Positions 2,070-43,517 of a stretch of 43,517 nucleotides of DNA are shown in pieces. The position numbers and the translations under genes are program-made. This DNA is from Naegleria gruberi (lineage: Eukaryota). The DNA lies in the NCBI GenBank assembly GCA_000004985.1, contig GG738958.1; one strand, written 5' to 3'. Numbering within the stretch: position 1 is the stretch's first letter; the number at the start of each line of letters is the position of its first letter. Under the pieces are notes generated by a model. It made no database searches. It saw nothing but the letters and a program-made list of their open reading frames with translations, and was not told the origin of the DNA.

Positions 2070-5000
2070 ATGGATATTTTCTGTGTGTGTATAGCAGAAT
2101 TTGATTTACTCAAAGGAAACACACTTTCACATGTGTATCCACCCGAACGAAGAACTATTCTAAACACTTTCACATCTCATTTGGGAGATTATTGTCTTCC
2201 GGATGGTGCTCACTATTTTGAAGAGGATGCTACCTATCTGGTAATTCCTTCAAATGTTGTGAGTTCTTCTCTGTATAGTTATTTGAAATCGGGTGCTTCT
2301 TCTAACAATGTTTCTAGTGTTTCGAATAGTGAGAATAGTTCAGTTGTTAATAATACACAACAAGTAATGGAATTTATTGAACCCTATGTGGATAAACCAA
2401 TGTATGCTCATTGTTTATTTAGAAATAAGAAGGATGAACGTGTCAAGAGAGGTGCCATTCAAAAGTCAATTATTTTATTTTCATCAAAACCATTATTTAC
2501 TGTTTATGAGAATTTATTGAGATTGGCATTGAATAGAATTTTGGATTTGGATAATATTCACTTACAGGTTAATGCTACAGCTACTAAGAAACAACCAGGT
2601 GAAGAATTAAACGAAACGGATTTAAATCTTTTGAATCAAGTTCATGATCAGATTAATGATACTTTGAAAGAGTTTTATAACGAGTGCAGAAATTGTAACA
2701 TGTTACAATTGAAATTATTCCCAAATACTGATACTATTACTTTGAATATTCCACGTCAGATTGATCCATTCACACCAATTGCATTTACACATGGAACTTC
2801 TCTTGTACAATTAGTTCAATATTTTGGATTGGAAACAATGCTTGTTTGTTGGAATGCTCTATTGTTGGATAAGAGAATTATGGTAATTGGTTCACCTGCC
2901 AAGTTGGTTTCACAGATCTGTCTCACTCTTCCTCTCTTGATTTATCCATTCCAATATAATGTCAATCGTGTACATCCATATGTGCCACTCTCAGAGATGG
3001 ATGATGTGTTATCTGCAACTTCTAAAATTCCAGAATATATCATTGGTACGACGAATGCTCTCTTTGAAACTCAAGGAAAAAATCAGAGAACTCAATGGTG
3101 GGATGTTTGTTTGAGTGTCAATTCTAGAAAAGTTCAACTTGCTGAAAAGATGCCACCTCATTTCGGTGGTTCTGATTTGGCATTCCTCAATACCAATGAT
3201 AGCGAAGATGTTCAAATTGAAAAGCTCAATGCCTATCAGAAAGTATTCATGTTAAATGTCATTAGTGGAGTGAGAGATGGAAAGAGTGAACAATGGGTTC
3301 GTGATCAGTTCAAAACTCACAATCTCAAGTTTATTACCGAATTATTGACAAAGGGAAAGCTTACTGATATAGTTGAGAATGTTCCGTCTGATGTAGGTGT
3401 CGATCCACAAAAACAACAAGTGGCTTTGAAGAATATTTCAGGAGGTCAATTGAAAAAGATTCAAAGACAGTTCATTGCTGAATCCTCCAAGTTTAGAACC
3501 TATGCTTTCAAACAATATTCAACATTTAGAAGTTCACACTGTAGTGGAGATAAGAGTGATGACAAACAATCGGAATCTGTTCTCCAATTATTGCAATATT
3601 TACAGGACGATAGGATTATCAAGAAGCAAAAGCTTAAATACTTGTTTGATTTGGATAAGATGTTGTGTAATGTTGATCAAATTGACTTGTTATTGTCAGT
3701 TAGTGATAATTCAAGTATTTTTACAACTATTAAGAATAACAAGTGGTTAATTGATGATAATAATCAGTGGAGAAAGTACAGTGCCAGTATTTTATCCCAA
3801 TTGGCAATTAGTGTTAAAGGTCAAATTCAATTATTGTCTCTTCTTCCATCTATCAAACTCTTGACCGAAGATTCAATGCCAAATGTCAAGAGAATTGGTT
3901 ATTACTGTATTATGAAGGTTAGCAACTTGTACATTGGTACATATGCCATCTTGAGAAACCACCACGACATTATTGAAAAGATTCTTGATAACATTTTGAA
4001 TGAGAGTGTGACAGATGCCAATTTTTATGAAATTAGAATGTACAGCATTCAAACCTTGTTACAAATTTGTCACTATTTTGATTATTTCAAACAGAGTATT
4101 AATGTTATCATGACAGATAAGGTCAATAATAATATGATTGAAGATGACGATGCCTACGCCAAGATTGTCAGTGTTTCCGTTGATAATTCAATGATTTCTT
4201 CAATTGTTGAAAAATTGGAAGGATTTAAAACTAAAATTGCTGGCAGTTTCTCCTACAGTAGTATTTCCAATAACAGTGTAGCAAAAAGAAGTTTGAACGA
4301 TTACAAATTCATTGACAAGTTACTGATTCTCTACGATTACTATGAACTCTATAATAATTACCACATTCTCACTGAGAGTGCTCTCAAGTACAATATGAAT
4401 GTCTTTTATTATTTGAGAAATTTTGACAATTCTCAGGCAAATTCATCCTTCACTGAAATGTATCATCACATCTCATCTATCATTATGAATATTAAGAATG
4501 ATTTGAAGAAGAGTAGTTCAGTTCAACAATCAGAGGGCGAAGATTCCAGTGATCCTCAAACACACATCAATGAATTCCATCATCACCACATGAGTGTTTA
4601 CTTGTTAGCTCTCTTACAAAGCACCAATTTGATCAATATCATTTTCAATGAATTTATTTTGAACGTGAATCATATCAAAACTTACAAGAATTACAAAATG
4701 CTCTACATGGTCATGCAATTATTGTACTATGTCATTGATACCAATGTTGGAATGTACTATTTATTAATTTCCAATTATATTGAATATTGCTTGACATTTA
4801 TCAAGTACTTTTCCATTTTGAAGAACAATGATCCAGAGGAAAGCAGTGAGGGCAATTTGAATTTCAGACTTTTCAAATGTTATTCCTTTATCATGTTCCT
4901 CAAAAGACTTTGCAAGTATAAGAAGGCAGCGTGTAGACTCATTGAATCTAATGCTCTTCATATTTTAGGTCAATTCATCATTACTCATTATTACAATCCA

Positions 5001-5579
5001 TTATTATCCAATTTGACCTATGCAGCCATTGATGTATTCCAAGATCTTTCTGTATTTTACTTTACACACTATTCCAATCCATTGGATTCTCAATGTGTAA
5101 CCCAATATTTCATTGAAGAGGATTCCACCAATAGCAGTGGCAACCAAGACGAGGAAGAATTCTTTAAAAATCCACTCTATGAGAGAAATTCCACATTGTA
5201 CTTTAAGAAGAGAATTAAGGATCGTCTGGAAATTCTGCCAGAACTCAGAAAGAAACATTTATTCAATTCTCTCTACAAAATTGCCTCAGCAACCTCAAAA
5301 ACTGAAGATTTTGAAAAGAATTTCCAACACGAAGCCATGTTAGAAAGCTCAAACTTCAAATACCATTATCATTTACAAAAACCAAGTGAGAAATCTCCGA
5401 GAGTTCTTTCAAGACTTTCCAAATTTAAACAAAAATTTACAGTGCAAACTAGTGAAAATGATGGAGATGATCATTTTGAGATGAATGTTTTGGATCAGAA
5501 ATTGAGACAGTGTGTTCATATTTTGAATACTTTTATTTTCAATTCAGATAATGAAATGAAACTTTCTTCTGAGGAATAA
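2070..5579 (+). CDS. AVL9-like / DENN-related (late secretory pathway protein Avl9 family) protein with long C-terminal extension, 1169 aa, single ORF
   Basis: ATG at 2070, TAA at 5577-5579. The N-terminal 300 aa align by eye to human/yeast AVL9: LSHVYPP..LPDGAHYFEEDATYLV versus AVL9 FSYPPL...LPDGAHNYQEDTVFF; RGAIQKSIILFSSKPLF versus RETVQKSVCVLSKLPLY; LVQLVQYFGLETMLVCWNALLLDKRIMVIGSPAKLVSQICLTLPLLIYP versus LVLHFRHKVLILFKLILLEKKVLFYISPVNKLVGALMTVLSLFPGMI. The C-terminal about 800 aa are N/S/K/Y-rich and unassigned. AATAAA (5575-5580) overlaps the stop codon. Confidence 0.6.
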   Translation: MDIFCVCIAEFDLLKGNTLSHVYPPERRTILNTFTSHLGDYCLPDGAHYFEEDATYLVIPSNVVSSSLYSYLKSGASSNNVSSVSNSENSSVVNNTQQVMEFIEPYVDKPMYAHCLFRNKKDERVKRGAIQKSIILFSSKPLFTVYENLLRLALNRILDLDNIHLQVNATATKKQPGEELNETDLNLLNQVHDQINDTLKEFYNECRNCNMLQLKLFPNTDTITLNIPRQIDPFTPIAFTHGTSLVQLVQYFGLETMLVCWNALLLDKRIMVIGSPAKLVSQICLTLPLLIYPFQYNVNRVHPYVPLSEMDDVLSATSKIPEYIIGTTNALFETQGKNQRTQWWDVCLSVNSRKVQLAEKMPPHFGGSDLAFLNTNDSEDVQIEKLNAYQKVFMLNVISGVRDGKSEQWVRDQFKTHNLKFITELLTKGKLTDIVENVPSDVGVDPQKQQVALKNISGGQLKKIQRQFIAESSKFRTYAFKQYSTFRSSHCSGDKSDDKQSESVLQLLQYLQDDRIIKKQKLKYLFDLDKMLCNVDQIDLLLSVSDNSSIFTTIKNNKWLIDDNNQWRKYSASILSQLAISVKGQIQLLSLLPSIKLLTEDSMPNVKRIGYYCIMKVSNLYIGTYAILRNHHDIIEKILDNILNESVTDANFYEIRMYSIQTLLQICHYFDYFKQSINVIMTDKVNNNMIEDDDAYAKIVSVSVDNSMISSIVEKLEGFKTKIAGSFSYSSISNNSVAKRSLNDYKFIDKLLILYDYYELYNNYHILTESALKYNMNVFYYLRNFDNSQANSSFTEMYHHISSIIMNIKNDLKKSSSVQQSEGEDSSDPQTHINEFHHHHMSVYLLALLQSTNLINIIFNEFILNVNHIKTYKNYKMLYMVMQLLYYVIDTNVGMYYLLISNYIEYCLTFIKYFSILKNNDPEESSEGNLNFRLFKCYSFIMFLKRLCKYKKAACRLIESNALHILGQFIITHYYNPLLSNLTYAAIDVFQDLSVFYFTHYSNPLDSQCVTQYFIEEDSTNSSGNQDEEEFFKNPLYERNSTLYFKKRIKDRLEILPELRKKHLFNSLYKIASATSKTEDFEKNFQHEAMLESSNFKYHYHLQKPSEKSPRVLSRLSKFKQKFTVQTSENDGDDHFEMNVLDQKLRQCVHILNTFIFNSDNEMKLSSEE

Positions 5580-5604: not shown

Positions 5605-6153
5605 TTATGGAAATGTAATGTTTGGAAAGTAGTGGAGGAGTAATAGAAATATATTTTGGTAAATTTGCAAATTTGTTAACAATTGACAATCTGTTATTTG
5701 TGTGGAATTTGATCGCATGTCAGTAGCATTAGAATTACTTAGAGGAAAGTGGACGAAATGGCAATAATCTGATGGCGTGATTGTTGACGCATGCATGTCA
5801 TTTTCCATTTGCTGATTTTTCGCTTTGTTCAATTCTTCCAAAATCGAATATTCACTATCAACATGCATATTAGGATTACTGACATGTGTCTCGACATGCA
5901 TCTTGACAGGTAAGCTCATTACACTAGCTAAACTATCCTTCTTTGATAAAACTCTAAATTGTGATGTTGGCTCTTGATGTTTCTCTACATGAAATACGAA
6001 ATAATTATCCAAAAATCTTTCGTTTAATAAAGTCTTTCTTAAACGTTGAGTTTTCAGTTTGTTTTCACGTTTGGCTATTCGCATGGAAGTTCTCAATGTT
6101 TCGTCTATGAAAGAAACATCTCTTTGATTGAGTTTCGAATAAGATTGGGGCAT
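5605..6153 (-). CDS. Member A of tandem small-protein family (divergent copy, 182 aa), function unknown
   Basis: ATG = cat at 6151-6153, stop tta at 5605-5607. Shares the N-terminal module with the other copies (FIDETLRTSMRIAKRENKLKTQRLRKTLLNERFLDNYFVFHVEK versus F.DET.KTLNRI.KK.K.SAKHELRKQLCND.LLKNYFVLNPEK) and a C-terminal hydrophobic IFLLLLHYF versus LFLLQLCCA. Its stop lies 25 bp from the stop of the convergent AVL9-like gene. Confidence 0.55.
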   Translation of the reverse strand: MPQSYSKLNQRDVSFIDETLRTSMRIAKRENKLKTQRLRKTLLNERFLDNYFVFHVEKHQEPTSQFRVLSKKDSLASVMSLPVKMHVETHVSNPNMHVDSEYSILEELNKAKNQQMENDMHASTITPSDYCHFVHFPLSNSNATDMRSNSTQITDCQLLTNLQIYQNIFLLLLHYFPNITFP

Positions 6154-7192
6154 GTTTTTTTTTAGTTGGAAAGTTTCAAACTTTCTGTTCGATTCTTAAT
6201 GCACAAGGGTAATATCGAACAAGTCTGGTTGTGAGCACATTCAAAATGGTCAATGGTAAGATTTTTTAAAGTGCATGGTTATGGCATTATCCAAAAAGGG
6301 AACATTGACGGTCAATTAAGGTTTTTGCACATCAATTCAAAGTTGCCTTGTATAGTGCAATGAGTTCTTCCACAATAATTCTTGGTTAATACTACCAATC
6401 AAAAGTTAAAAGTTCCATTTTTGAACATTAACTTTAATACTGTTCTGTTTTCTGTTGTAAAAGTTAATTATTATTATTGCAATGTCGCACGAATGAAATT
6501 ATGCGTTTTATTGTTCTGATGATGGCACTCTTCTAAAATAGAAGTTTGATACTTGCTAATTATTGAGGCACCTGATGATTCGTTTCGTTTCTTTCGGTCT
6601 GTATGTGCTTAATGAAGTTGAGCAAACTTTCGAAAGTACACGTTTCGGTTTCACCACTTTCATTTCTAATAATAAGAATGTGGAAAGTACTGGTGGCAGT
6701 GGTGCAATGATTTTTCTGCAATAATTCTTGTATAAATTTCCATGATTGACCTTTGTTATTATAAGAAGGTTTCCACTCAACTTGTTGGAACATTAATTCA
6801 ACATTTTCTGCCTACATTTTAGAATATTAACAATTTGCTAATGATTGAAGCATCACCTGCTTGATTATCATGATAATTCTTCTGAAAGGTACACTTGTGC
6901 ACAAAATCACACTTAATATGCTGTAATCATTTAGTTTGACAGAGATTGGAAAATAGTTGTGGTTGTGGTATTGTTTCTACCTCGATATGGAACTGTGTGC
7001 TTAATGAAGTTTCCAATGAATTTTGATGAGAATCCTTTCGAATACAATCTGTTTCAGTTTCACTTAAAGAAGCGAGATGGGTAAAACAGAGATATTACTC
7101 AAAAGATAAGTTCTCAAAACAAAAGATCCCATTCTAAATCGCATTTATTAAAGTCATGAGAGTTGACGAAAGTTGCGACTCAACTGAGATTT

Positions 7193-7651
7193 TTATTGAA
7201 AGAAATTTCTGTTTTGTCCTTGATCCATAAGAGCACAACACAATTGCAGTAGAAATAAATCGAATTGTTGCTGATGGTTGTGGATAGTGTTTGGAGTTTC
7301 GTCTATTTGTTGTGTTTCATTTCGAATGATATTTGTTTCGAATAATTGATTTTGCTCGTGGTTATAGTTTGCTGATTGCAAGTTGTTGATCTTTGGTGGA
7401 GAAGTAGTAACGTGTTTAGTCACAATTAATTGTTCACTTTCGAATGATTTGGATCCATCAATTCGAAAGACAACAGTTTCGTCCTTTTCAGGGTTCAAAA
7501 CAAAGTAATTCTTCAATAAATCATCATTACACAATTGTTTTCTCAACTCGTGTTTGGCAGATATCTTGACCTTCTTTTGAATTCTATTCAATGTTTTACA
7601 AGTTTCGTCCTTGAACATTATTTGTTTCGTCTTCTTATTCGAATTATTCAT
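7193..7651 (-). CDS. Member B of tandem small-protein family, 152 aa, function unknown
   Basis: Complete ATG-to-TAA ORF: MNNSNKKTKQIMFKDETCKTLNRIQKKVKISAKHELRKQLCNDDLLKNYFVLNPEKDETVVFRIDGSKSFESEQLIVTKHVTTSPPKI...QQQFDLFLLQLCCALMDQGQNRNFFQ. It matches members C and D at about 75-80% identity by eye over the conserved blocks. AATAAA on the minus strand (tttatt at 7192-7197 on +) overlaps the stop codon. Confidence 0.65.
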   Translation of the reverse strand: MNNSNKKTKQIMFKDETCKTLNRIQKKVKISAKHELRKQLCNDDLLKNYFVLNPEKDETVVFRIDGSKSFESEQLIVTKHVTTSPPKINNLQSANYNHEQNQLFETNIIRNETQQIDETPNTIHNHQQQFDLFLLQLCCALMDQGQNRNFFQ

Positions 7652-8431
7652 CTTTGAGTTATTTTATTTAATATTAATTCAATGTCCAGCACACATGTTT
7701 CCATGATCAAAAGTTTGCCTTTATCAACTGAACCTGCCAAAATTGTCCTTTTTGATATTGACAATCAGATGTGCTGCATTTAAACAATCACATTTACAAA
7801 CTTAAAACGAAAGGAGATATTCGATATGGAAAATTGCAATTTCATTATGGAATTAAGAGACAATTGCGGCTCTTTCAAATTTTGGCTTCATGAACTCGAG
7901 GGAAAGCACTTTAAAAGGAATTAGCTTTATTTGTCAAATTTCCTAAGGGAAATGAGATTGTAGGAGCTCAATATCACAACATTTAAATATTTACAAATGT
8001 GAGAACAATCAGATTCGACGAAAGGAACACTGAATGATGAACTTAACCAAGTAGCTCACAAGCTATGAGAGTCGGATATTAAAGAAAGAAAGCAATTCAT
8101 CCATGATATTAATCCACACTTAATTATTTTCGTAAAATATCTAAAAATTGCTTAGACGTACAAGTAATTTGCCTTGTAATTAAACAAATTTACTACCCTT
8201 TGGTTATCATTTTACTTGCTCGTTGGATATCTAGGATCTAAGTTTCTTGTGATGCGTACAGTATTCGAAAGTCACGTCCTCCGTGCATGTAAGCCAAACA
8301 ACTGTCATCCTTTCCAATAAACACACTTCAATTTTGCTAAAGCAGATCAATAGCGCTTCAACTGATAATTGATGTAAAGGTAAGAGCATTAACTGATAAG
8401 TGGAGATTGAAGAAATCTCAAATTTACAGAT

Positions 8432-8869
8432 TTATTGAAAATTATTTCTGTTTTCTCCTTGCTCTAATTGTGCACAACATAACTGCAGAAGGAATAGATT
8501 GAATTGTTGTTGGTTGTGGAGAGAGTTTGAAGTTTCGTCTAGTTGGGGATCATTTCGAATAAGTGGAATTGGCTCTTGGTTTTGATATGATACGTTGCTG
8601 ATCTTTGGTGGAGAGCAGCTGACTTGTTTAGTAACAATTAATTGCTCATTTTCGAATGATTTAATGTCATCAATGCGAAAGACTGAAGTTTCGTCTTTTT
8701 CTCTATCCAAAACAAAGTAATTCTTCAATAATTCATCATTGCATAATTGTTTCCTGAGTTCGTGCTTGGCAGACTTTACTTTCTTCTTGTTTATTCTATT
8801 CAATGTTTTACTAGTTTCGTCTGTGAACATTAGTTTCGGATTCTTTCCATTATTCGAATTATTCATCAT
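8432..8869 (-). CDS. Member C of tandem small-protein family, 145 aa, function unknown
   Basis: Complete ORF MMNNSNNGKNPKLMFTDETSKTLNRINKKKVKSAKHELRKQLCNDELLKNYFVLDREKDETSVFRIDDIKSFENEQLIVTKQVSCSPPKI...QQQFNLFLLQLCCAQLEQGENRNNFQ. The substitution pattern relative to member B is conservative and codon-level, which is coding-like divergence. AATAAA (tttatt at 8431-8436 on +) overlaps the stop. Confidence 0.65.
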   Translation of the reverse strand: MMNNSNNGKNPKLMFTDETSKTLNRINKKKVKSAKHELRKQLCNDELLKNYFVLDREKDETSVFRIDDIKSFENEQLIVTKQVSCSPPKISNVSYQNQEPIPLIRNDPQLDETSNSLHNQQQFNLFLLQLCCAQLEQGENRNNFQ

Positions 8870-10035
8870 GGAATCTTTTTGGTATTTTATTTGATCACGT
8901 AATTTGAGATTTTTGCTTCTGAACCTGTAAACAAGTCAGCAAGGAGCACCACTTTCTATCAAGAAATTTCCAACAGAAAGAGTTGTATAGTTGACAGATA
9001 TCAAAATTAAGGCACCTGACATGTGTCATGAGAGGAAGATAAGGTTGAATAAAAACGAAACATGTTAAATTTAGTTTATTTCTTTTTTGTTTATTTCTCG
9101 TAGAAGCTCTTCGTTGCAGACCTCTATTTTCTCCATTACTCTTCATTAAATAGGCAATCCACATTTTCCAAAAACACTTTTATCATGTAAAAAAGGAGAA
9201 TTCATTTATAGACTTTACAGTCGAAATTTACCATTTGTTGATTTGTAATTATTCGAAAATGATCTATTTCAGAAATGATGAGTATCCTATTTAACTTTGT
9301 TATATTTCACTGAATAGTTTTTCAGAAAAAGTTTTCCACTATCACTCACTACATGTGTTGAAACACATTGTTGAACAAAGTTCTGAGTTATTTTTAATAC
9401 TCTTCAATTCCACATATAATTATTACTGCTTTCATTTACAATTATCGCACATTAAAATTGTGTTTGTTGATGAATTGATGTAAATTCTTGCCAGTTTTGA
9501 TGTGACAGACTGATTCGGTCTGGTTGACAATACATGTACTCACTACTAGCTGTTGATTGTTGATCCTCTAGATTCAATCTATTTGATTGTGGTATTAAAA
9601 TGTTACATGGCCACACCTTTTTTTGACACACATGTACATGTAGCTGTTGTGTGCATGTTCAGCAATTTAACAATTATGATAACAATTGAAGCATGCTATA
9701 TCTCTTTCGAAACCACCACTATTAACTTTCTTCTAACAACATTATTCCGGTGCTACATGTAAGCACACATGGTAAGCATGTTGTTATTTCTTTTTTGTTT
9801 GAACGTATTGGAAGTCTACATGTTGTAACCTCCACACACTTGTTAATATTTCAATTTCACCAAAAGCAGTGAAATGACTCATTTTAAGCAGGCAAATTGC
9901 TTTTAAACGATCTAATGAATTTGTAACAGTGGTTTTTTCAAGATTAGTTTGCCTAAATCTGCATTCTTCGCGTAATTGACTAGCCGAAAGTGATGGATTA
10001 ATGAGAGAAAATTTACAAATCTCCAACTTGCAGAT

Positions 10036-10479
10036 TTATTGAAAGCAATTTCTTTTTTGCCCTTCTTGTTGGTGAATGAGTGCACAACACAATTGTAGAA
10101 GGAATTGGTTCATTTCTTGTTGGTTGTGGATGGTGTTTATAATTTCGTCTGGTTGTGGATCATTTCGAATGGTTTCAGATACTGGTGGATTTGGTTCATG
10201 GTGATGAGTTGATTGGACGTTAGTGACCATTGAGTGTTTAGTCACAATTACTTGCTCATTTTCTAATGGTGTGTTTTCAATTCGAAAGACAACAGTTTCG
10301 TCCTTTTCAGGGTTCAAAACAAAGTAATTCTTTAATAAATCATGATTACACAACTGTTTTCTCAATTCATGTTTGGCAGATATCTTTTCCTTCTTCTTAT
10401 GTATTCTATTCAATGTTTTACAAGTTTCGTCCATAAACTTTATAACTTTCTCCTTCTTTCTAATATTCGAATTATTCAT
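10036..10479 (-). CDS. Member D of tandem small-protein family, 147 aa, function unknown
   Basis: Complete ORF MNNSNIRKKEKVIKFMDETCKTLNRIHKKKEKISAKHELRKQLCNHDLLKNYFVLNPEKDETVVFRIENTPLENEQVIVTKH...QQEMNQFLLQLCCALIHQQEGQKRNCFQ. AATAAA (tttatt at 10035-10040 on +) overlaps the stop. Its 3' flank is alignable with those of members B and C (agatttattgaaa..atttctgttttgtccttg). Confidence 0.65.
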   Translation of the reverse strand: MNNSNIRKKEKVIKFMDETCKTLNRIHKKKEKISAKHELRKQLCNHDLLKNYFVLNPEKDETVVFRIENTPLENEQVIVTKHSMVTNVQSTHHHEPNPPVSETIRNDPQPDEIINTIHNQQEMNQFLLQLCCALIHQQEGQKRNCFQ

Positions 10480-10874
10480 CTCTTTGAGCTTTTTTTATTT
10501 TAATCTGTAGAGACCTGTCATCAGTTACAAGATCTCGTGTATGTAAGTGAAGCATGAACAATTATAATTTGTAACTTCTAATCTGAGAATTTGAGATTTT
10601 TGAGTTGCATTTGGCAATTAATTTTGTCCTTTTCAGAACACATACATCAAATTGAAGTGTTTGACATGTGTGAGGGTAAGTGTATGTATACAATGAAGTG
10701 TTTGACATGAGTTCGTTTGTGGTACCATGACTTTATTCGAAACTAAAGTTAATTTTCATTGTTCTATTCAAGACCATTAAAATTCCAATTTTGATTCTTG
10801 TTTATTAACCAGTTTTTCAAATTATTATTCAAGGTTCAGCACATCAGTACAATAGAAAGGAGACGAAAGTTTTT

Positions 10875-11279
10875 TCAGTTTAATAATTCTTTTATTGATA
10901 TTGAAGTTCTTACCACTCGTGTATGGTTTCTATTAAAATTTGACTTATTCATTAATTGTGAGCTATTTTGATTAGTTTGCAATGTTTCAGGTTTAGTTTC
11001 TAATACTTTCTTTTCTTTTTTTCGTTTTGGAGGTTTCTTTGTTATTCCCTTCTTGTTGCTGACCTTCCACTTTTCAAGAGTCTCAGTCTTGGTCACTATC
11101 ATTCTATTAGAAGAATAATTATTAGACGAATCCCCTTTCTTTGGTCTTCCTCTCCCTCTTTTCATTATTTCTTCTCCGCCATTACTGTCCTTTCGTGGTG
11201 GCGAGAATTCCACCATAGAGAATGTGTGATAATTATTAATCTTGTAGGAAGATGTAGATGCTGTATTGATTAGTGTCAT
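10875..11279 (-). CDS. Small basic ORF with one canonical AT-hook (KRGRGRPKKG), 134 aa; possible HMGA-like DNA-binding protein embedded in the paralog array
   Basis: ATG (cat at 11277-11279) to TGA (tca at 10875-10877). Contains RGRP flanked by K/R (AT-hook core) and a second basic stretch KKPPKRKKEKK; the rest is S/N/T-rich low complexity. There is no paralog in the window. It could be a chance ORF in AT-rich DNA, so confidence is low. Confidence 0.35.
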   Translation of the reverse strand: MTLINTASTSSYKINNYHTFSMVEFSPPRKDSNGGEEIMKRGRGRPKKGDSSNNYSSNRMIVTKTETLEKWKVSNKKGITKKPPKRKKEKKVLETKPETLQTNQNSSQLMNKSNFNRNHTRVVRTSISIKELLN

Positions 11280-11636
11280 TTTTGTTTTTTGAAAAGAAAA
11301 TTACATGAAACACGTTTTCATTAAAAAGGCAATCCATAAAGTCTCTTTTTAATGGGGGAGATTCATGTCCACTTTAAGATATCAACACATTCTTTGAAAT
11401 GCTTTCTCGAAGGAGCAATTCATGTAATGCAGCTGTTTACTGCCGTTACATTACAATACGATTGAAAAGGCAAGTAAGTGTTCCAAAAACAGTTGGAAAT
11501 GAAATCTAAATGGAGTGTTTCAAAGGAGATGATAGCTCTTGGCCGGATTGGTATTTTCATGCCTATGGTTAAAAATCTGGTTTGAGAAATTGAGTGGGTG
11601 GAAACTTAGTTTCGAATAATTGTTTATTGGTGAATG

Positions 11637-12083
11637 TTAGTATTCTTGTTGGTATTGTAAGAGTAAGCTGTACAGTTGAAGGAGAAAGATCATTTCTTGT
11701 TGATAGGTAGAATTATCCATTTGTTGATTTGTATTCGAAACTGTGAAATGCTGATGATCCACAGCATGTGTATTCATTTCATCTTGTCTATTTTCTTGAT
11801 TTCTCTCCTCAATTCTATTCGATTCTCCAACTAGTCTAACATGTTGAGTTACCACACTATTTCCGATTTTAAACTCTTTATCTATTCGAAAGGTTGTCAA
11901 TTGATCCTTCCTATTATCAAAAACAAAGTAATTCTTTAAAATTTCATCATTCTGTAATTGCTTTCTCAATCCTGGATATTTACTTTTTGGTTTCCTCTTG
12001 ATAATCTTGTCTGTGGTCTTTACTGTTTCGTCTATTATCGAAAATTGTTTCGAACCTTTCTTCTGGTTTTGACCACTTGGCAT
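11637..12083 (-). CDS. Member E of tandem small-protein family (more divergent), 148 aa, function unknown
   Basis: Complete ORF MPSGQNQKKGSKQFSIIDETVKTTDKIIKRKPKSKYPGLRKQLQNDEILKNYFVFDNRKDQLTTFRIDKEF...QQEMIFLLQLYSLLLQYQQEY. It retains the IDET..KT...I.K, LRKQL.ND..LKNYFV, FRID and C-terminal FLLQL blocks, but CC is replaced by YS. AATAAA (tttatt at 11623-11628 on +) lies 9 nt past the stop. Confidence 0.6.
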   Translation of the reverse strand: MPSGQNQKKGSKQFSIIDETVKTTDKIIKRKPKSKYPGLRKQLQNDEILKNYFVFDNRKDQLTTFRIDKEFKIGNSVVTQHVRLVGESNRIEERNQENRQDEMNTHAVDHQHFTVSNTNQQMDNSTYQQEMIFLLQLYSLLLQYQQEY

Positions 12084-37485: not shown

Positions 37486-40400
37486 NNNNNNNNNNNNNNN
37501 NNNNNNNNNNNNNNNNNNNNNNNNNNNNNNNNNNNNNNNNNNNNNNNNNNNNNNNNNNNNNNNNNNNNNNNNNNNNNNNNNNNNNNNNNNNNNNNNNNNN
37601 NNNNNNNNNNNNNNNNNNNNNNNNNNNNNNNNNNNNNNNNNNNNNNNNNNNNNNNNNNNNNNNNNNNNNNNNNNNNNNNNNNNNNNNNNNNNNNNNNNNN
37701 NNNNNNNNNNNNNNNNNNNNNNNNNNNNNNNNNNNNNNNNNNNNNNNNNNNNNNNNNNNNNNNNNNNNNNNNNNNNNNNNNNNNNNNNNNNNNNNNNNNN
37801 NNNNNNNNNNNNNNNNNNNNNNNNNNNNNNNNNNNNNNNNNNNNNNNNNNNNNNNNNNNNNNNNNNNNNNNNNNNNNNNNNNNNNNNNNNNNNNNNNNNN
37901 NNNNNNNNNNNNNNNNNNNNNNNNNNNNNNNNNNNNNNNNNNNNNNNNNNNNNNNNNNNNNNNNNNNNNNNNNNNNNNNNNNNNNNNNNNNNNNNNNNNN
38001 NNNNNNNNNNNNNNNNNNNNNNNNNNNNNNNNNNNNNNNNNNNNNNNNNNNNNNNNNNNNNNNNNNNNNNNNNNNNNNNNNNNNNNNNNNNNNNNNNNNN
38101 NNNNNNNNNNNNNNNNNNNNNNNNNNNNNNNNNNNNNNNNNNNNNNNNNNNNNNNNNNNNNNNNNNNNNNNNNNNNNNNNNNNNNNNNNNNNNNNNNNNN
38201 NNNNNNNNNNNNNNNNNNNNNNNNNNNNNNNNNNNNNNNNNNNNNNNNNNNNNNNNNNNNNNNNNNNNNNNNNNNNNNNNNNNNNNNNNNNNNNNNNNNN
38301 NNNNNNNNNNNNNNNNNNNNNNNNNNNNNNNNNNNNNNNNNNNNNNNNNNNNNNNNNNNNNNNNNNNNNNNNNNNNNNNNNNNNNNNNNNNNNNNNNNNN
38401 NNNNNNNNNNNNNNNNNNNNNNNNNNNNNNNNNNNNNNNNNNNNNNNNNNNNNNNNNNNNNNNNNNNNNNNNNNNNNNNNNNNNNNNNNNNNNNNNNNNN
38501 NNNNNNNNNNNNNNNNNNNNNNNNNNNNNNNNNNNNNNNNNNNNNNNNNNNNNNNNNNNNNNNNNNNNNNNNNNNNNNNNNNNNNNNNNNNNNNNNNNNN
38601 NNNNNNNNNNNNNNNNNNNNNNNNNNNNNNNNNNNNNNNNNNNNNNNNNNNNNNNNNNNNNNNNNNNNNNNNNNNNNNNNNNNNNNNNNNNNNNNNNNNN
38701 NNNNNNNNNNNNNNNNNNNNNNNNNNNNNNNNNNNNNNNNNNNNNNNNNNNNNNNNNNNNNNNNNNNNNNNNNNNNNNNNNNNNNNNNNNNNNNNNNNNN
38801 NNNNNNNNNNNNNNNNNNNNNNNNNNNNNNNNNNNNNNNNNNNNNNNNNNNNNNNNNNNNNNNNNNNNNNNNNNNNNNNNNNNNNNNNNNNNNNNNNNNN
38901 NNNNNNNNNNNNNNNNNNNNNNNNNNNNNNNNNNNNNNNNNNNNNNNNNNNNNNNNNNNNNNNNNNNNNNNNNNNNNNNNNNNNNNNNNNNNNNNNNNNN
39001 NNNNNNNNNNNNNNNNNNNNNNNNNNNNNNNNNNNNNNNNNNNNNNNNNNNNNNNNNNNNNNNNNNNNNNNNNNNNNNNNNNNNNNNNNNNNNNNNNNNN
39101 NNNNNNNNNNNNNNNNNNNNNNNNNNNNNNNNNNNNNNNNNNNNNNNNNNNNNNNNNNNNNNNNNNNNNNNNNNNNNNNNNNNNNNNNNNNNNNNNNNNN
39201 NNNNNNNNNNNNNNNNNNNNNNNNNNNNNNNNNNNNNNNNNNNNNNNNNNNNNNNNNNNNNNNNNNNNNNNNNNNNNNNNNNNNNNNNNNNNNNNNNNNN
39301 NNNNNNNNNNNNNNNNNNNNNNNNNNNNNNNNNNNNNNNNNNNNNNNNNNNNNNNNNNNNNNNNNNNNNNNNNNNNNNNNNNNNNNNNNNNNNNNNNNNN
39401 NNNNNNNNNNNNNNNNNNNNNNNNNNNNNNNNNNNNNNNNNNNNNNNNNNNNNNNNNNNNNNNNNNNNNNNNNNNNNNNNNNNNNNNNNNNNNNNNNNNN
39501 NNNNNNNNNNNNNNNNNNNNNNNNNNNNNNNNNNNNNNNNNNNNNNNNNNNNNNNNNNNNNNNNNNNNNNNNNNNNNNNNNNNNNNNNNNNNNNNNNNNN
39601 NNNNNNNNNNNNNNNNNNNNNNNNNNNNNNNNNNNNNNNNNNNNNNNNNNNNNNNNNNNNNNNNNNNNNNNNNNNNNNNNNNNNNNNNNNNNNNNNNNNN
39701 NNNNNNNNNNNNNNNNNNNNNNNNNNNNNNNNNNNNNNNNNNNNNNNNNNNNNNNNNNNNNNNNNNNNNNNNNNNNNNNNNNNNNNNNNNNNNNNNNNNN
39801 NNNNNNNNNNNNNNNNNNNNNNNNNNNNNNNNNNNNNNNNNNNNNNNNNNNNNNNNNNNNNNNNNNNNNNNNNNNNNNNNNNNNNNNNNNNNNNNNNNNN
39901 NNNNNNNNNNNNNNNNNNNNNNNNNNNNNNNNNNNNNNNNNNNNNNNNNNNNNNNNNNNNNNNNNNNNNNNNNNNNNNNNNNNNNNNNNNNNNNNNNNNN
40001 NNNNNNNNNNNNNNNNNNNNNNNNNNNNNNNNNNNNNNNNNNNNNNNNNNNNNNNNNNNNNNNNNNNNNNNNNNNNNNNNNNNNNNNNNNNNNNNNNNNN
40101 NNNNNNNNNNNNNNNNNNNNNNNNNNNNNNNNNNNNNNNNNNNNNNNNNNNNNNNNNNNNNNNNNNNNNNNNNNNNNNNNNNNNNNNNNNNNNNNNNNNN
40201 NNNNNNNNNNNNNNNNNNNNNNNNNNNNNNNNNNNNNNNNNNNNNNNNNNNNNNNNNNNNNNNNNNNNNNNNNNNNNNNNNNNNNNNNNNNNNNNNNNNN
40301 NNNNNNNNNNNNNNNNNNNNNNNNNNNNNNNNNNNNNNNNNNNNNNNNNNNNNNNNNNNNNNNNNNNNNNNNNNNNNNNNNNNNNNNNNNNNNNNNNNNN

Positions 40401-41735
40401 NNNNNNNNNNNNNNNNNNNNNNNNNNNNNNNNNNNNNNNNNNNNNNNNNNNNNNNNNNNNNNNNNNNNNNNNNNNNNNNNNNNNNNNNNNNNNNNNNNNN
40501 NNNNNNNNNNNNNNNNNNNNNNNNNNNNNNNNNNNNNNNNNNNNNNNNNNNNNNNNNNNNNNNNNNNNNNNNNNNNNNNNNNNNNNNNNNNNNNNNNNNN
40601 NNNNNNNNNNNNNNNNNNNNNNNNNNNNNNNNNNNNNNNNNNNNNNNNNNNNNNNNNNNNNNNNNNNNNNNNNNNNNNNNNNNNNNNNNNNNNNNNNNNN
40701 NNNNNNNNNNNNNNNNNNNNNNNNNNNNNNNNNNNNNNNNNNNNNNNNNNNNNNNNNNNNNNNNNNNNNNNNNNNNNNNNNNNNNNNNNNNNNNNNNNNN
40801 NNNNNNNNNNNNNNNNNNNNNNNNNNNNNNNNNNNNNNNNNNNNNNNNNNNNNNNNNNNNNNNNNNNNNNNNNNNNNNNNNNNNNNNNNNNNNNNNNNNN
40901 NNNNNNNNNNNNNNNNNNNNNNNNNNNNNNNNNNNNNNNNNNNNNNNNNNNNNNNNNNNNNNNNNNNNNNNNNNNNNNNNNNNNNNNNNNNNNNNNNNNN
41001 NNNNNNNNNNNNNNNNNNNNNNNNNNNNNNNNNNNNNNNNNNNNNNNNNNNNNNNNNNNNNNNNNNNNNNNNNNNNNNNNNNNNNNNNNNNNNNNNNNNN
41101 NNNNNNNNNNNNNNNNNNNNNNNNNNNNNNNNNNNNNNNNNNNNNNNNNNNNNNNNNNNNNNNNNNNNNNNNNNNNNNNNNNNNNNNNNNNNNNNNNNNN
41201 NNNNNNNNNNNNNNNNNNNNNNNNNNNNNNNNNNNNNNNNNNNNNNNNNNNNNNNNNNNNNNNNNNNNNNNNNNNNNNNNNNNNNNNNNNNNNNNNNNNN
41301 NNNNNNNNNNNNNNNNNNNNNNNNNNNNNNNNNNNNNNNNNNNNNNNNNNNNNNNNNNNNNNNNNNNNNNNNNNNNNNNNNNNNNNNNNNNNNNNNNNNN
41401 NNNNNNNNNNNNNNNNNNNNNNNNNNNNNNNNNNNNNNNNNNNNNNNNNNNNNNNNNNNNNNNNNNNNNNNNNNNNNNNNNNNNNNNNNNNNNNNNNNNN
41501 NNNNNNNNNNNNNNNNNNNNNNNNNNNNNNNNNNNNNNNNNNNNNNNNNNNNNNNNNNNNNNNNNNNNNNNNNNNNNNNNNNNNNNNNNNNNNNNNNNNN
41601 NNNNNNNNNNNNNNNNNNNNNNNNNNNNNNNNNNNNNNNNNNNNNNNNNNNNNNNNNNNNNNNNNNNNNNNNNNNNNNNNNNNNNNNNNNNNNNNNNNNN
41701 NNNNNNNNNNNNNNNNNNNNNNNNNNNNNNNNNNN
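37486..41735. other. Run of 4,250 N (gap/masked); hides the 5' portion of the S41-like gene and the 3' portion of the membrane-protein gene starting at 42280
   Basis: First n at 37486, last n at 41735, by coordinate count. Confidence 1.
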
Positions 41736-42280
41736 TGCCATCCAAGATGAACACCATAATAACGAATCACTCCACGACAATCATTTTCAGGTTGCCAAAC
41801 CACAAACTCATCCAAATTTGGAAAACTTCCACTTGCTTCCATCTTTTCATCTTGAGTTGGTTTTCTTGGCTTTACCTCCTCTGCCCAATGAATTCTCTCA
41901 TCCAAATGAGAATAATAATGAACTGTCATTTGTCCACTAATGTACCAAATGCCGAGCGTCAAATAATTCAACATGTTATTCCAGAAACATCTAAAAATAA
42001 TGCCAAAACCATGAGAAGTATCATAATTCAAACGACGATTACCAATTCTCATCTTTCTAACTTCGTAACGAGTAATTTGATTGACGAATAAGAGTTCTGA
42101 AAGTCCCAATGTGATTACCTTGAACAAGAAGAACATTATTGCTTCACATGGGTTGTGTTCTCTGCAACCAAAGATTCTATTCTTGACATGACGTTCTTGG
42201 TTGAGTTGGTGGATATTGAGAGGGGTCTTTTGCGAGGAAGGAGAGGTGGAGGTAGCTCCTTGCATTTCGTATGAAGCCAT
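41736..42280 (-). CDS. 5' exon or exons (N-terminal about 180 aa) of a polytopic membrane protein of unassigned family; remainder hidden in the N run
   Basis: ATG = cat at 42278-42280. Open in frame from the gap edge: MASYEMQGATSTSPSSQKTPLNIHQLNQERHVKNRIFGCREHNPCEAIMFFLFKVITLGLSELLFVNQ...GIIFRCFWNNMLNYLTLGIWYISGQ...DEFVVWQPENDCRGVIRYYGVHLGW. It has a hydrophobic helix about 50 aa in and aromatic/W-rich segments. I compared it by memory to P4/P5 ATPases and CDC50 and found no convincing match. Internal introns cannot be excluded. Confidence 0.4.
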
Positions 42281-42777
42281 TTTGAATTGTTTTTTTTGAG
42301 TATTGTTGTTATTGTGAAAGGAGAATGAGTGGGAAATTTATTCGAAAGTTGTTTTGAGTATGTTTTCATGTACTTACTATATTTGTTATCTTCATGTGGT
42401 TTCACTAAATTTCAGTTTGCGAAACATCACAATAAACTTGTTACTTGTCATTTTCCTTCTTCATTTGACTGAAGTCTAACATATCACACAAGACATATCC
42501 TAATTCACTGAAGTATATTCAAGACATTAGACTTACTAAACTTGGAAGGTTTTCCAAGTTTTTTTTCTTCATGCTGAAAACAAACTTGGCATCTCATGAT
42601 AACTAACACAATCTCGACTCGGAATAATAACTAAGGTTTTTACAATTTCATACACTTTCTTTTCTTTTAATAGAATCGAATTACATTAACCAAACTTCTC
42701 TTTTAGTTTATTGTAAAATGTTTTGGCTGCTAGTTCTATCTAAAAATTGGTTAAATTTCATAAAAATATTATAAAAA

Positions 42778-43384
42778 ATGCGTAAACGGACAGAAAGTGA
42801 TTCTTCTCTGTTGAAATTACCTACAGAAATTCTTAGAGTCATTCTCTCCTTTCTGAACTATCCGAATACATCAGAATATTGGAAAGTTGCAGACGAAACA
42901 CTTTTCCATCATCCGATTTCAATGATACTTGAAAATATGAAACGAATGGTTTTAAATTTGCAATCTATTTGTTCATTCTTTCAAAATGATGACATTCCGA
43001 TTGGAAGGGAATTAAACGAATTTTGGATAATTTTAATCCAGAGAGAATTTTACTTTCCAACAGGATTTATTGAAAGTAAAAAGGAAAAGATCAGACCAAA
43101 AGCTAAAAGATGTTATCTGCTATTACATAAAATGGTAGAAATGAAATTTAATAATGATTGTGGTGCTATTCGAAACATTCAACATTCAGTTCAAGAATCT
43201 AATAGTTTCAAAGTGTGTGTAATGGGAGAAGGAGGAGCAGGAAAATCAAATCTATGTAGAAGATGCGCCAATGATGATTTCTTTGAAGTGTTTGATATGG
43301 GAACTGTGGAAGAAATTTTTAGAAAACAAATTAGTGTCAATAATCAAAAATTTGAAATTGAATTTGAAGAACCTTCCAGTTATG
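42778..43384 (+). CDS. Exon 1 of an F-box-like / Ras-like small GTPase fusion protein (P-loop intact, switch II DxxGQ degenerate)
   Basis: ATG at 42778. N-terminal LLKLPTEILRVILSFLNYP resembles the F-box core (LP.eIL..Il..L), which is a weak call. C-terminal KVCVMGEGGAGKSNLCRRCANDDFFEVFDMGTVEEIFRKQISVNNQKFEIEFEEPSSY aligns to Ras [60 protein letters not shown] (G1 GxxGxGKS present; switch I T; DTAGQ replaced by EEPSS). The exon ends ...agt tat g|gtaagt. Confidence 0.65.
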
Positions 43385-43425
43385 GTAAGTTTATTTGAGA
43401 ATTTTTGAATTCAAATTTGGAATAG
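43385..43425 (+). other. Spliceosomal intron, 41 nt, phase 1: GTAAGT...AATAG
   Basis: Unspliced reading hits TGA at 43396-43398. Joining 43384 to 43426 gives ...SSY-D-EFEALRDMSVRNCQVSIIVFPSIHDS, matching Ras [31 protein letters not shown] (the ALRD/AMRD and VF motifs line up). Confidence 0.7.
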
Positions 43426-43505
43426 ATGAGTTTGAAGCACTTAGAGATATGTCAGTTCGTAACTGCCAAGTGTCAATTATTGTATTTCCATCGATTCATG
43501 ATTCT
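43426..43505 (+). CDS. Exon 2 of the F-box/Ras-like gene; probably ends at a GTAAAT donor at 43506 and continues beyond the window
   Basis: In-frame Ras core continues; the G4 NKxD and G5 motifs have not yet appeared. gtaaat at 43506-43511 is a plausible donor; otherwise TAG at 43515-43517 would truncate the GTPase domain, which is unlikely. Confidence 0.5.
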
Positions 43506-43517
43506 GTAAATCACTAG

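Follow-up and report, generated by a model that had tools for sequence, protein, structure and literature searches.

The 43,517-bp stretch of DNA analysed here (the window; contig GG738958.1 of assembly GCA_000004985.1) is an entire small scaffold of Naegleria gruberi, and the gene of interest, XP_002668758, lies at its extreme 3′ end. The region holds the 5′ part, the front two-thirds, of this gene, which is cut off by the scaffold end. The gene belongs, as an ordinary member, to a large expansion of Ras-family GTPases specific to Naegleria. We lean, with some confidence, towards reading the product as an F-box-like head joined to a Ras-type G domain that has kept its nucleotide-binding elements and lost the catalytic box of switch II, hence as a putative pseudoGTPase of class-ii type tied to Skp1 and the Skp1–Cullin–F-box (SCF) ubiquitin ligases. 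Gene structure, domain identities and motif states were observed directly; nucleotide behaviour, prenylation and recruitment to SCF are purely what we infer from them. The features of the gene are as follows (aa, amino acids).

42778..43384, plus strand: exon 1 (aa 1-202 and the first base of codon 203); an open reading frame (ORF) identical to the corrected model in Table S8 of Herman et al. 2021.
42808-42855, plus strand: F-box-like helix 1, LLKLPTEILRVILSFL (aa 11-26); matches positions 1-18 of the Pfam F-box/F-box-like profiles with E 0.04-0.26, below cutoff.
42856-42936, plus strand: 27-aa insertion (aa 27-53), from the family alignment; variable in length in the family and absent in XP_002668120.
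42937-43041, plus strand: part resembling F-box helices 2 and 3, MKRMVLNLQSICSFF...LNEFWIILIQ (aa 54-88), from the family alignment and hhalign.
43099-43149, plus strand: helical linker with the family motif KAKRCYLLLHKMVEMKF (consensus LKRKxLL), from the family alignment; a long helix is predicted with low confidence.
43225-43248, plus strand: G1/P-loop, GEGGAGKS (aa 150-157); fits GxxxxGK[ST] and lies inside the Ras Pfam match.
43291-43320, plus strand: switch I/G2, FDMGTVEEIF (aa 172-181), from alignment to Rap2A and Rap1b.
43369-43383, plus strand: degenerate G3 and start of switch II, EPSSY in place of DTAG(Q/T) (aa 198-202), from alignment to Rap2A.
43385..43425, plus strand: spliceosomal intron of 41 nt, phase 1, GTAAGT...ATAG, from frame restoration, alignment and conservation.
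43426..43517, plus strand: start of exon 2 (rest of switch II, DEFEALRDMS; beta4, VSIIVF); coding runs off the scaffold.

The first ATG after a stop, at 42778, opens an ORF of 206 aa that ends four codons into the intron (SSYGKFI, then a stop). Read unspliced, the frame thus stops at once; excision of 43385-43425 joins it in frame to DEFEALRDMSVRNCQVSIIVFPSIHDS and gives a product of 229 aa whose alignment to Rap2A and Rap1b is ungapped across the splice junction. A database entry, P0001, labelled 'predicted protein, partial [Naegleria gruberi]', matches with 100% identity. That the region might be no gene, or a chance ORF, was rejected in view of its Ras score, its conservation and the published record. 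Herman et al. 2021 (BMC Biol 19:142, PMC8296547), who re-annotated more than 350 Ras-superfamily genes of N. gruberi, entered the gene in their Table S8 as 'Ras', XP_002668758.1*, with no extra domain and no pseudogene flag; their corrected sequence is identical to our spliced model through ...PSIHDSVNH, and their curated model uses the same splice junction. The NCBI model (P0001/XP_002668758.1) starts at M54 (42937), ends in ...RDMS and leaves out the helix LPTEILRVILSFL. The 53 codons upstream of M54 are conserved in paralogues and form part of the corrected model of Herman et al.; in the paralogues P0003 and P0004 conservation of the N-terminus sets in from residue ~8 onward.

Two further copies of the gene bear on what follows. 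A protein search found P0002, which begins inside the intron and extends past the window; its contig, L001 (2,390 nt, ENA metagenome assembly ERZ929261), is 99.0% identical to window positions 41977-43517 and carries the entire gene. The other, ACER01000421.1, is a near-identical, newly predicted full-length second N. gruberi copy listed in Table S8 (PMC8296547). It has six substitutions in its first 229 aa, among them one that makes the P-loop GEVGAGKS (Val at the Ras G12 position), reads EEPSIY at switch II, and carries a C-terminal frameshift that removes the CaaX box.

The very short intron noted in the preliminary description stands: its borders are GT-AG, its excision restores the frame and leaves the Ras alignment free of gaps, and its position is kept in homologues. 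The intron sequence is identical in L001, and in a paralogue on a second contig, L002, it occupies the same codon position and phase, is again 41 nt long and is identical at 31 of 41 positions, close to the exon identity of 74%. Introns of N. gruberi average 203 bp, and a 30-bp minimum was applied for N. fowleri (PMC8296547); an intron of 41 nt is short, not exceptional.

Judged by its alignments, the G domain is of the Ras family, with Rap and Ras as its nearest relatives. Pfam PF00071 matches the spliced window product at aa 145-223 (profile positions 1-79 of 162, E 9e-10, 38.8 bits against a cutoff of 21.6) and the full-length L001 protein over profile positions 1-159 of 162 (51.6 bits); chance similarity falls far short of this. 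Rap2A (1kao) is matched with E 5.9e-10 and Rap1b with E 5e-15, the NKCD of the latter aligned with TKSD. The Ras-like GTPase of the preliminary description is thus borne out, together with its P-loop and Ras-like switch I, for which positions and alignment agree. Within the P-loop, G150, G155 and K156 are invariant across the family alignment. In switch I the equivalent of Ras T35 is kept, and FDMGTVEE aligns with YDPTIED with a one-residue insertion (MG for P). G4 and G5, to be sought in downstream exons according to the same description, lie beyond the window and are both present in L001, as TKSD (N replaced by T) and SAK; the downstream sequence of L001 aligns to Ras/Rap1b from alpha3 to beta5 up to G4, a 21-residue stretch being paired with ILRIKDCDDAPCIIAFTKSDL (E 5e-15).

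Switch II departs from this pattern. The residues at Ras positions D57-T58-A59-G60-Q/T61 are E-P-S-S-Y in the window and E-P-S-I-Y in L001 and ACER01000421, so that neither DxxG nor Gln61 is present and the G60 position is S or I among the copies. The DTAGQ box had been described as non-canonical, rightly, and its replacement as EEPSS, which is one residue off: the Rap2A register gives EPSSY. In Ras, D57 positions the Mg-coordinating water, the amide of G60 contacts the gamma-phosphate and triggers the transition of switch II, and the catalytic water takes its orientation from Q61. Retention of G1, the switch I Thr, G4 and G5, together with replacement of all three of these equivalents, suggests that the protein probably binds guanine nucleotide and hydrolyses it poorly, without normal switching. 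A nucleotide-binding, hydrolysis-defective protein, as predicted from the motifs, is a reasonable reading because G4 (TKSD) and G5 (SAK) are present in the full-length copy. The combination of a degraded switch II with retained G1, G4 and G5 is the motif pattern of class-ii pseudoGTPases; the Rnd proteins are an example of this class with a degraded switch II (PMC5593906).

The gene shares its layout with a subgroup of at least 15 N. gruberi genes, taken from the 'Ras' rows of Table S8 of Herman et al. From N- to C-terminus the layout comprises LPxEIL..ILSF, a variable insertion, NFQS[IL]xKK, FNEFWW, an LKRKxLL linker, the G domain, an LLKxVI..D helix and a CaaX box in which X is mostly M. In some members switch II departs from the canonical form by Q61P alone (DTAGP); in many it is degenerate, the variants being DCST, EMKG, DTDA, GVAG, KLYT and DAMF, DTYAM in P0004 and EPS[S/I]Y here. 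A scan of metagenome contigs with the sub-clade alignment gave 346 pattern matches, none of which was confirmed.

We consider it likely that the head is homologous to F-boxes; it is probably a divergent F-box split by the 27-aa insertion. That it works as an F-box and binds Skp1 is a claim we rate lower. The F-box is convincing only at family level, once the variable insertion has been removed. When the family alignment was projected onto XP_002668120 and the insertion taken out by hand, the resulting consensus scored 25.4 bits on PF00646 (E 1.2e-5, positions 1-36 of 43), above the cutoff of 20.5. With the trimmed profile, hhalign against ten F-boxes (six flagged on Naegleria GTPases by Herman et al. 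and four classical ones) gave a probability of 95.1% (P 3e-8) over 44-48 columns, placing FQSixKK on the l..VcK.W of the F-box and FW on its trailing LW; helix 1 gave 88.5% over 18 columns. Shuffling whole columns lowered the hhalign score of the trimmed profile from 36.5 to 3.7 ± 2.4, with none of 200 shuffles reaching the original value. Since only 1 of 200 shuffles restricted to columns 19-50, which keep helix 1, reached it (26.3 ± 3.2), the second half of the domain appears to contribute real signal. XP_002668120, the sole native member without the insertion, matches PF12937 at positions 2-38 of 47 (E 0.026), and the best Pfam match belongs to an F-box-clan family in 7 of 11 family N-termini, all of them sub-threshold. 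Residues S63, F82 and W83 are invariant or nearly so in the family. Weak Pfam matches of the N-terminus to Forkhead and TnsA_C were dismissed, having E values above 0.03 and not recurring in paralogues.

A number of results weigh against an F-box. The protein alone scores 11.7-14.4 bits on PF00646 (cutoff 20.5) and 12.3-13.6 bits on PF12937 (cutoff 24.3), in both cases over profile positions 1-18 only; the F-box-like N-terminus of the preliminary description therefore holds as a family-level similarity after trimming and fails as a Pfam match of the protein itself, and of the two domain scans it proposed, PF00071 came out above its cutoff and PF00646 below. The hhalign and trimmed-consensus scores depend on manual removal of the insertion, the former also on a reference set entered partly by hand; the untrimmed consensus reaches 17.9 bits on PF00646, from helix 1 alone. 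Searched against the sequences of the Protein Data Bank (PDB), the trimmed family profile found FBXO42 (E 0.59) and cyclin F (E 0.74) as its best F-boxes, neither significant, and the untrimmed profile gave no significant match. AlphaFold2 produced no confident fold for the N-terminus from an alignment of four sequences (predicted local distance difference test, pLDDT, 43); for full-length P0004, with seven sequences, the G domain reached 70-86 and the N-terminus stayed below 50. In the survey by Herman et al., which drew on SMART, Pfam and CDD, none of the Ras-family rows was flagged for an F-box (PMC8296547).

These observations could be explained differently, by supposing that the extension is a family-specific helical domain, serving for example dimerisation, autoregulation or localisation, whose helix 1 merely resembles the LPxE(I/L)L start of an F-box. 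The product would then signal from the membrane as a Ras-like protein, or act there as a pseudo-switch, unconnected with ubiquitin ligases. We give this a modest chance of being correct. It would account for the sub-threshold Pfam scores of every native member, most of which match profile positions 1-20 only, and of the untrimmed consensus, as well as for the lack of a significant PDB F-box and of a flag in the published survey (PMC8296547). It also fits the 20-30-aa insertion that comes between the putative helices 1 and 2 in almost every member, and the presence of I, L or F where the canonical V-[CS]-K-x-W has its tryptophan. It does not explain why the trimmed consensus rises above the cutoff over positions 1-36 of 43, why the second half of the domain adds significantly to the hhalign score, or why F-box-clan families are consistently the top Pfam matches. 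Genuine F-box-GTPase fusions also abound in the N. gruberi genome (PMC8296547). The extension has no detectable relatives outside the Naegleria-type lineage as far as sequence searches reach: a phmmer search of 1.8 billion representatives with the 142-aa N-terminus returned itself, P0003, P0004 (Naegleria-type) and two low-complexity false positives only, and word-indexed protein searches with the single sequence, the N-terminal profile and the full-length profile gave 2-4 proteins each.

A further comparison for the gene is the paralogue P0003 on contig L002, whose N-terminus is 55% identical to that of the window gene and which comes from the same sample as L001.

L002 4422-5092 (ENA ERZ929261 k127_368570): paralogue with the same 41-nt intron and an open frame.

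This paralogue has no GKS (it reads GENAGEEKL) and has lost about 21 aa in switch I/beta2 and a further 7 aa in switch II, yet its frame is open; it is a candidate nucleotide-free pseudoGTPase. Its upstream neighbour (3186-4361) encodes a Kelch/beta-propeller protein with a Pfam match to Beta-prop_FBX42. Between the window gene and the paralogue, the ratio of non-synonymous to synonymous substitution rates (dN/dS) comes to 0.44 in the N-terminus, 0.29 in the F-box-like core and 0.30 in what is left of the G domain; values of 0.29-0.44 indicate moderate purifying selection and not neutral decay. The window and L001 differ by two synonymous changes and one non-synonymous change in 687 nt of shared coding sequence. 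The non-synonymous one, at 43379 in the codon of aa 201 (the Ras G60 position), is Ser (AGT) in the window and Ile (ATT) in L001 and ACER01000421.

At the very end of the window the two copies differ by a base. Relative to L001 the window is one C short at 43507, a site 11 nt from where the scaffold ends (window GATTCTGT-AAATCACTAG, L001 GATTCTGTCAAATCACTAGAACAT). L001 reads GTCAAATCACTAGAACAT (GTCAAAT) at this site and continues in frame as DSVKSLEHSF...; in the window the missing C produces a GTAAAT 'donor' and puts a TAG in frame at 43515-43517, so that VKSLEH becomes VNH-TAG. With the C restored, 152 further codons lead to a stop and give the 373-aa protein of L001, which ends in the CaaX box CNMM. 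The missing C may reflect a fault of the assembly or a genuine frameshift in this allele.

It is improbable, in our view, that the gene is a decaying or dead copy in a birth-and-death family, with switch II broken by drift and the frameshift truncating the protein before G4 and G5, a reading that is compatible with the others. The missing C, with L001 and ACER01000421 reading on where the window stops, would be one sign of it; others are the S or I at the G60 equivalent among copies 99% identical, the Val at the G12 position and the CaaX-removing frameshift of ACER01000421, and the stretches of G domain that are gone from the L002 paralogue. XP_002668758 is not given as a one-to-one orthologue of any N. 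fowleri gene, and birth-and-death evolution with disrupted copies has been described for F-box Rab-like clades (both PMC8296547). Against decay, the deletion lies where assembly errors are common, L001 has an intact ORF with few differences from the window, dN/dS is about 0.3-0.44 and not ~1, intron phase and splice sites are kept in both paralogues, and Herman et al. did not mark the gene as a putative pseudogene (PMC8296547). Even so, the exchange of S and I at G60 between near-identical copies, the G12V-type change and lost CaaX box of ACER01000421, and the frameshift at 43507 each suggest weak constraint on the G domain, and to that extent count against the reading that we favour.

Least probable by far is the earlier two-intron model, with a second short intron starting at GTAAAT 43506 and coding resuming beyond the window: the hexamer resembles a donor and would leave exon 2 ending in phase 0, but L001 has GTCAAAT and 152 more codons in frame whose translation aligns to Rap1b/Ras from alpha3 through beta5 to G4, ACER01000421 reads the same as L001 at 43506, and the L002 paralogue likewise reads through as coding, a comparison by which this donor was ruled out.

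To return to the F-box-like pseudoGTPase that we favour, the full-length architecture as read in L001 consists of the head (helix 1 LPTEILRVILSFL, the 27-aa insertion, QSIC..F / NEFW), the linker, the G domain, a family-specific C-terminal helix and CNMM. By CaaX rules, CNMM predicts farnesylation. The protein would thus be farnesylated and attached to membranes through CNMM; it would hold guanine nucleotide without hydrolysing GTP or undergoing the normal switch II transition, and so might behave as a class-ii-type pseudoGTPase, like the Rnd proteins. The F-box-like head could couple this Ras-like module to Skp1/SCF, in which case the module would be the membrane-targeting or target-binding part of a ubiquitin ligase. 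Such a tether is in line with what Herman et al. proposed for other GTPase classes.

More tentatively, and with doubts as to whether it will hold, the proposal might be extended to the subgroup as a whole. Its 15 or more genes would then constitute an unflagged class of F-box proteins in which a farnesylated Ras-like G domain serves as the target-recognition or gating module of SCF; some members (DTAGP) would be true GTP switches, and others, such as this gene (EPSSY) and the L002 paralogue that is without GKS and switch I, would have become pseudoGTPase adaptors. If so, the subgroup would span a natural gradation of SCF receptors at membranes, from those gated by GTP to those independent of nucleotide.

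The preliminary description largely holds as observation; its interpretation is sensible, though it reads somewhat too much into a motif below threshold, and the second intron is an artefact. Both the gene with its splice model and the broader theme of F-box-GTPases in Naegleria are already published (Herman et al. 2021, PMC8296547), and the finding is incremental because those authors list the gene and describe F-box fusions for other GTPase classes. Two modest points are new: family-level evidence for what is probably a split, divergent F-box in the Ras subgroup, and an account, drawn from motif comparison, of switch II degradation in this sub-clade. If the F-box reading is true, Naegleria would couple ubiquitin ligases to Ras-type GTPases besides Rab, Rho, Ran and Gα, which would lend weight to the published view that GTPase-dependent ubiquitination is a major mode of regulation in this organism. 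Subgroup members at different stages of G-motif loss would offer a useful natural series for following the change from switch GTPase to pseudoGTPase. For the single locus the value is modest: the NCBI model, starting at M54, misses the F-box-like helix, what looked like a second intron is a gap of one base, and the C-terminal third (G4, G5, CaaX) can be recovered from the near-identical contig L001.

The rest of the scaffold is largely gap. Runs of N at 12485-35698 (23,214 bases) and 37486-41735 (4,250 bases) make up 63% of the window, and ORF listings across them are meaningless. GC content is 32-35% in the window; that of the N. gruberi genome is 33% (PMC8296547). Upstream of the GTPase gene and divergent from it, a minus-strand gene at 41736-42280 starts at 42280 (MASYEMQG...), 497 bp from the GTPase ATG, and runs into the N gap; its start is also on L001, and a Pfam scan of it gave no significant match. 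At the other end of the scaffold, the plus-strand ORF 153-1655 encodes 500 aa with a C-terminal RGS domain (PF00615, E 4.7e-10). The plus-strand ORF 2070-5579 encodes 1169 aa with Afi1, DENN and SPA matches (PF07792, PF02141, PF08616; SPA E 2.6e-23), a DENN-type protein and hence a likely Rab/Arf regulator. On the minus strand, five paralogous ORFs (145-182 aa, 31-69% identical) lie in tandem at 5605-12083, with the common motifs DET.KT..RI.K...LRKQL.N..LLKNYFV and a C-terminal LLQLCCA; two of the five were scanned against Pfam, with no match.

5605-6153, minus strand: paralogous array ORF.
7193-7651, minus strand: paralogous array ORF.
8432-8869, minus strand: paralogous array ORF.
10036-10479, minus strand: paralogous array ORF.
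11637-12083, minus strand: paralogous array ORF.

Among known systems, the F-box-GTPase fusions of Naegleria itself are the closest. The F-box is the most frequent additional domain on Naegleria GTPases, occurring with Rab, Rho, Ran and Gα (PMC8296547, Suppl. Material 4). Divergent Rab-like clades have a conserved N-terminal extension 'in at least some … identifiable as the F-box', with a CaaX box in one clade and birth-and-death evolution, and GTPase-dependent ubiquitination was proposed (PMC8296547). The present gene resembles these fusions (Rab-like, Rho/Rac, Ran and Gα) in carrying an N-terminal F-box or F-box-like extension before a divergent Ras-superfamily G domain in the same organism, often with a C-terminal CaaX box, and in its lineage-specific expansion and signs of birth and death. 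It differs in that it and its relatives are filed as 'Ras' without an additional domain, Ras not being named as an F-box partner, and in that its putative F-box is split by an insertion and detectable at family level only.

Among GTPases of solved structure, Rap1/Rap2 and H/K/N-Ras (1kao, 3x1w) come nearest. They share with the present protein the P-loop, the switch I Thr, FRKQ, the ALRD of switch II, the ILR(I/V)KD helix, xKxD, SAK and the CaaX box, whereas the latter has EPS(S/I)Y for DTAG(Q/T), T for N in G4, an identity of only ~30%, and N- and C-terminal extensions of 143 and 50 aa. RhoBTB, a Rho-type GTPase fused to BTB domains, is a Cullin-3 adaptor. It places an atypical small-GTPase domain inside the substrate adaptor of a cullin-RING ligase, the logic proposed here, but it works through BTB/Cul3 and not F-box/Skp1-Cul1, belongs to another GTPase family with no homology outside the G domain, and carries its adaptor domain C-terminal to the G domain, where that of the present gene is N-terminal. 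Finally, class-ii pseudoGTPases such as Rnd (Stiegler & Boggon 2017, PMC5593906) likewise keep their nucleotide-binding motifs while the switch II region is degraded, and bind nucleotide constitutively without hydrolysis, as is predicted from sequence for the present protein. In the Rnd proteins DxxG is intact and the changes fall on catalytic positions; in the present protein the Asp and Gly of DxxG are themselves replaced.

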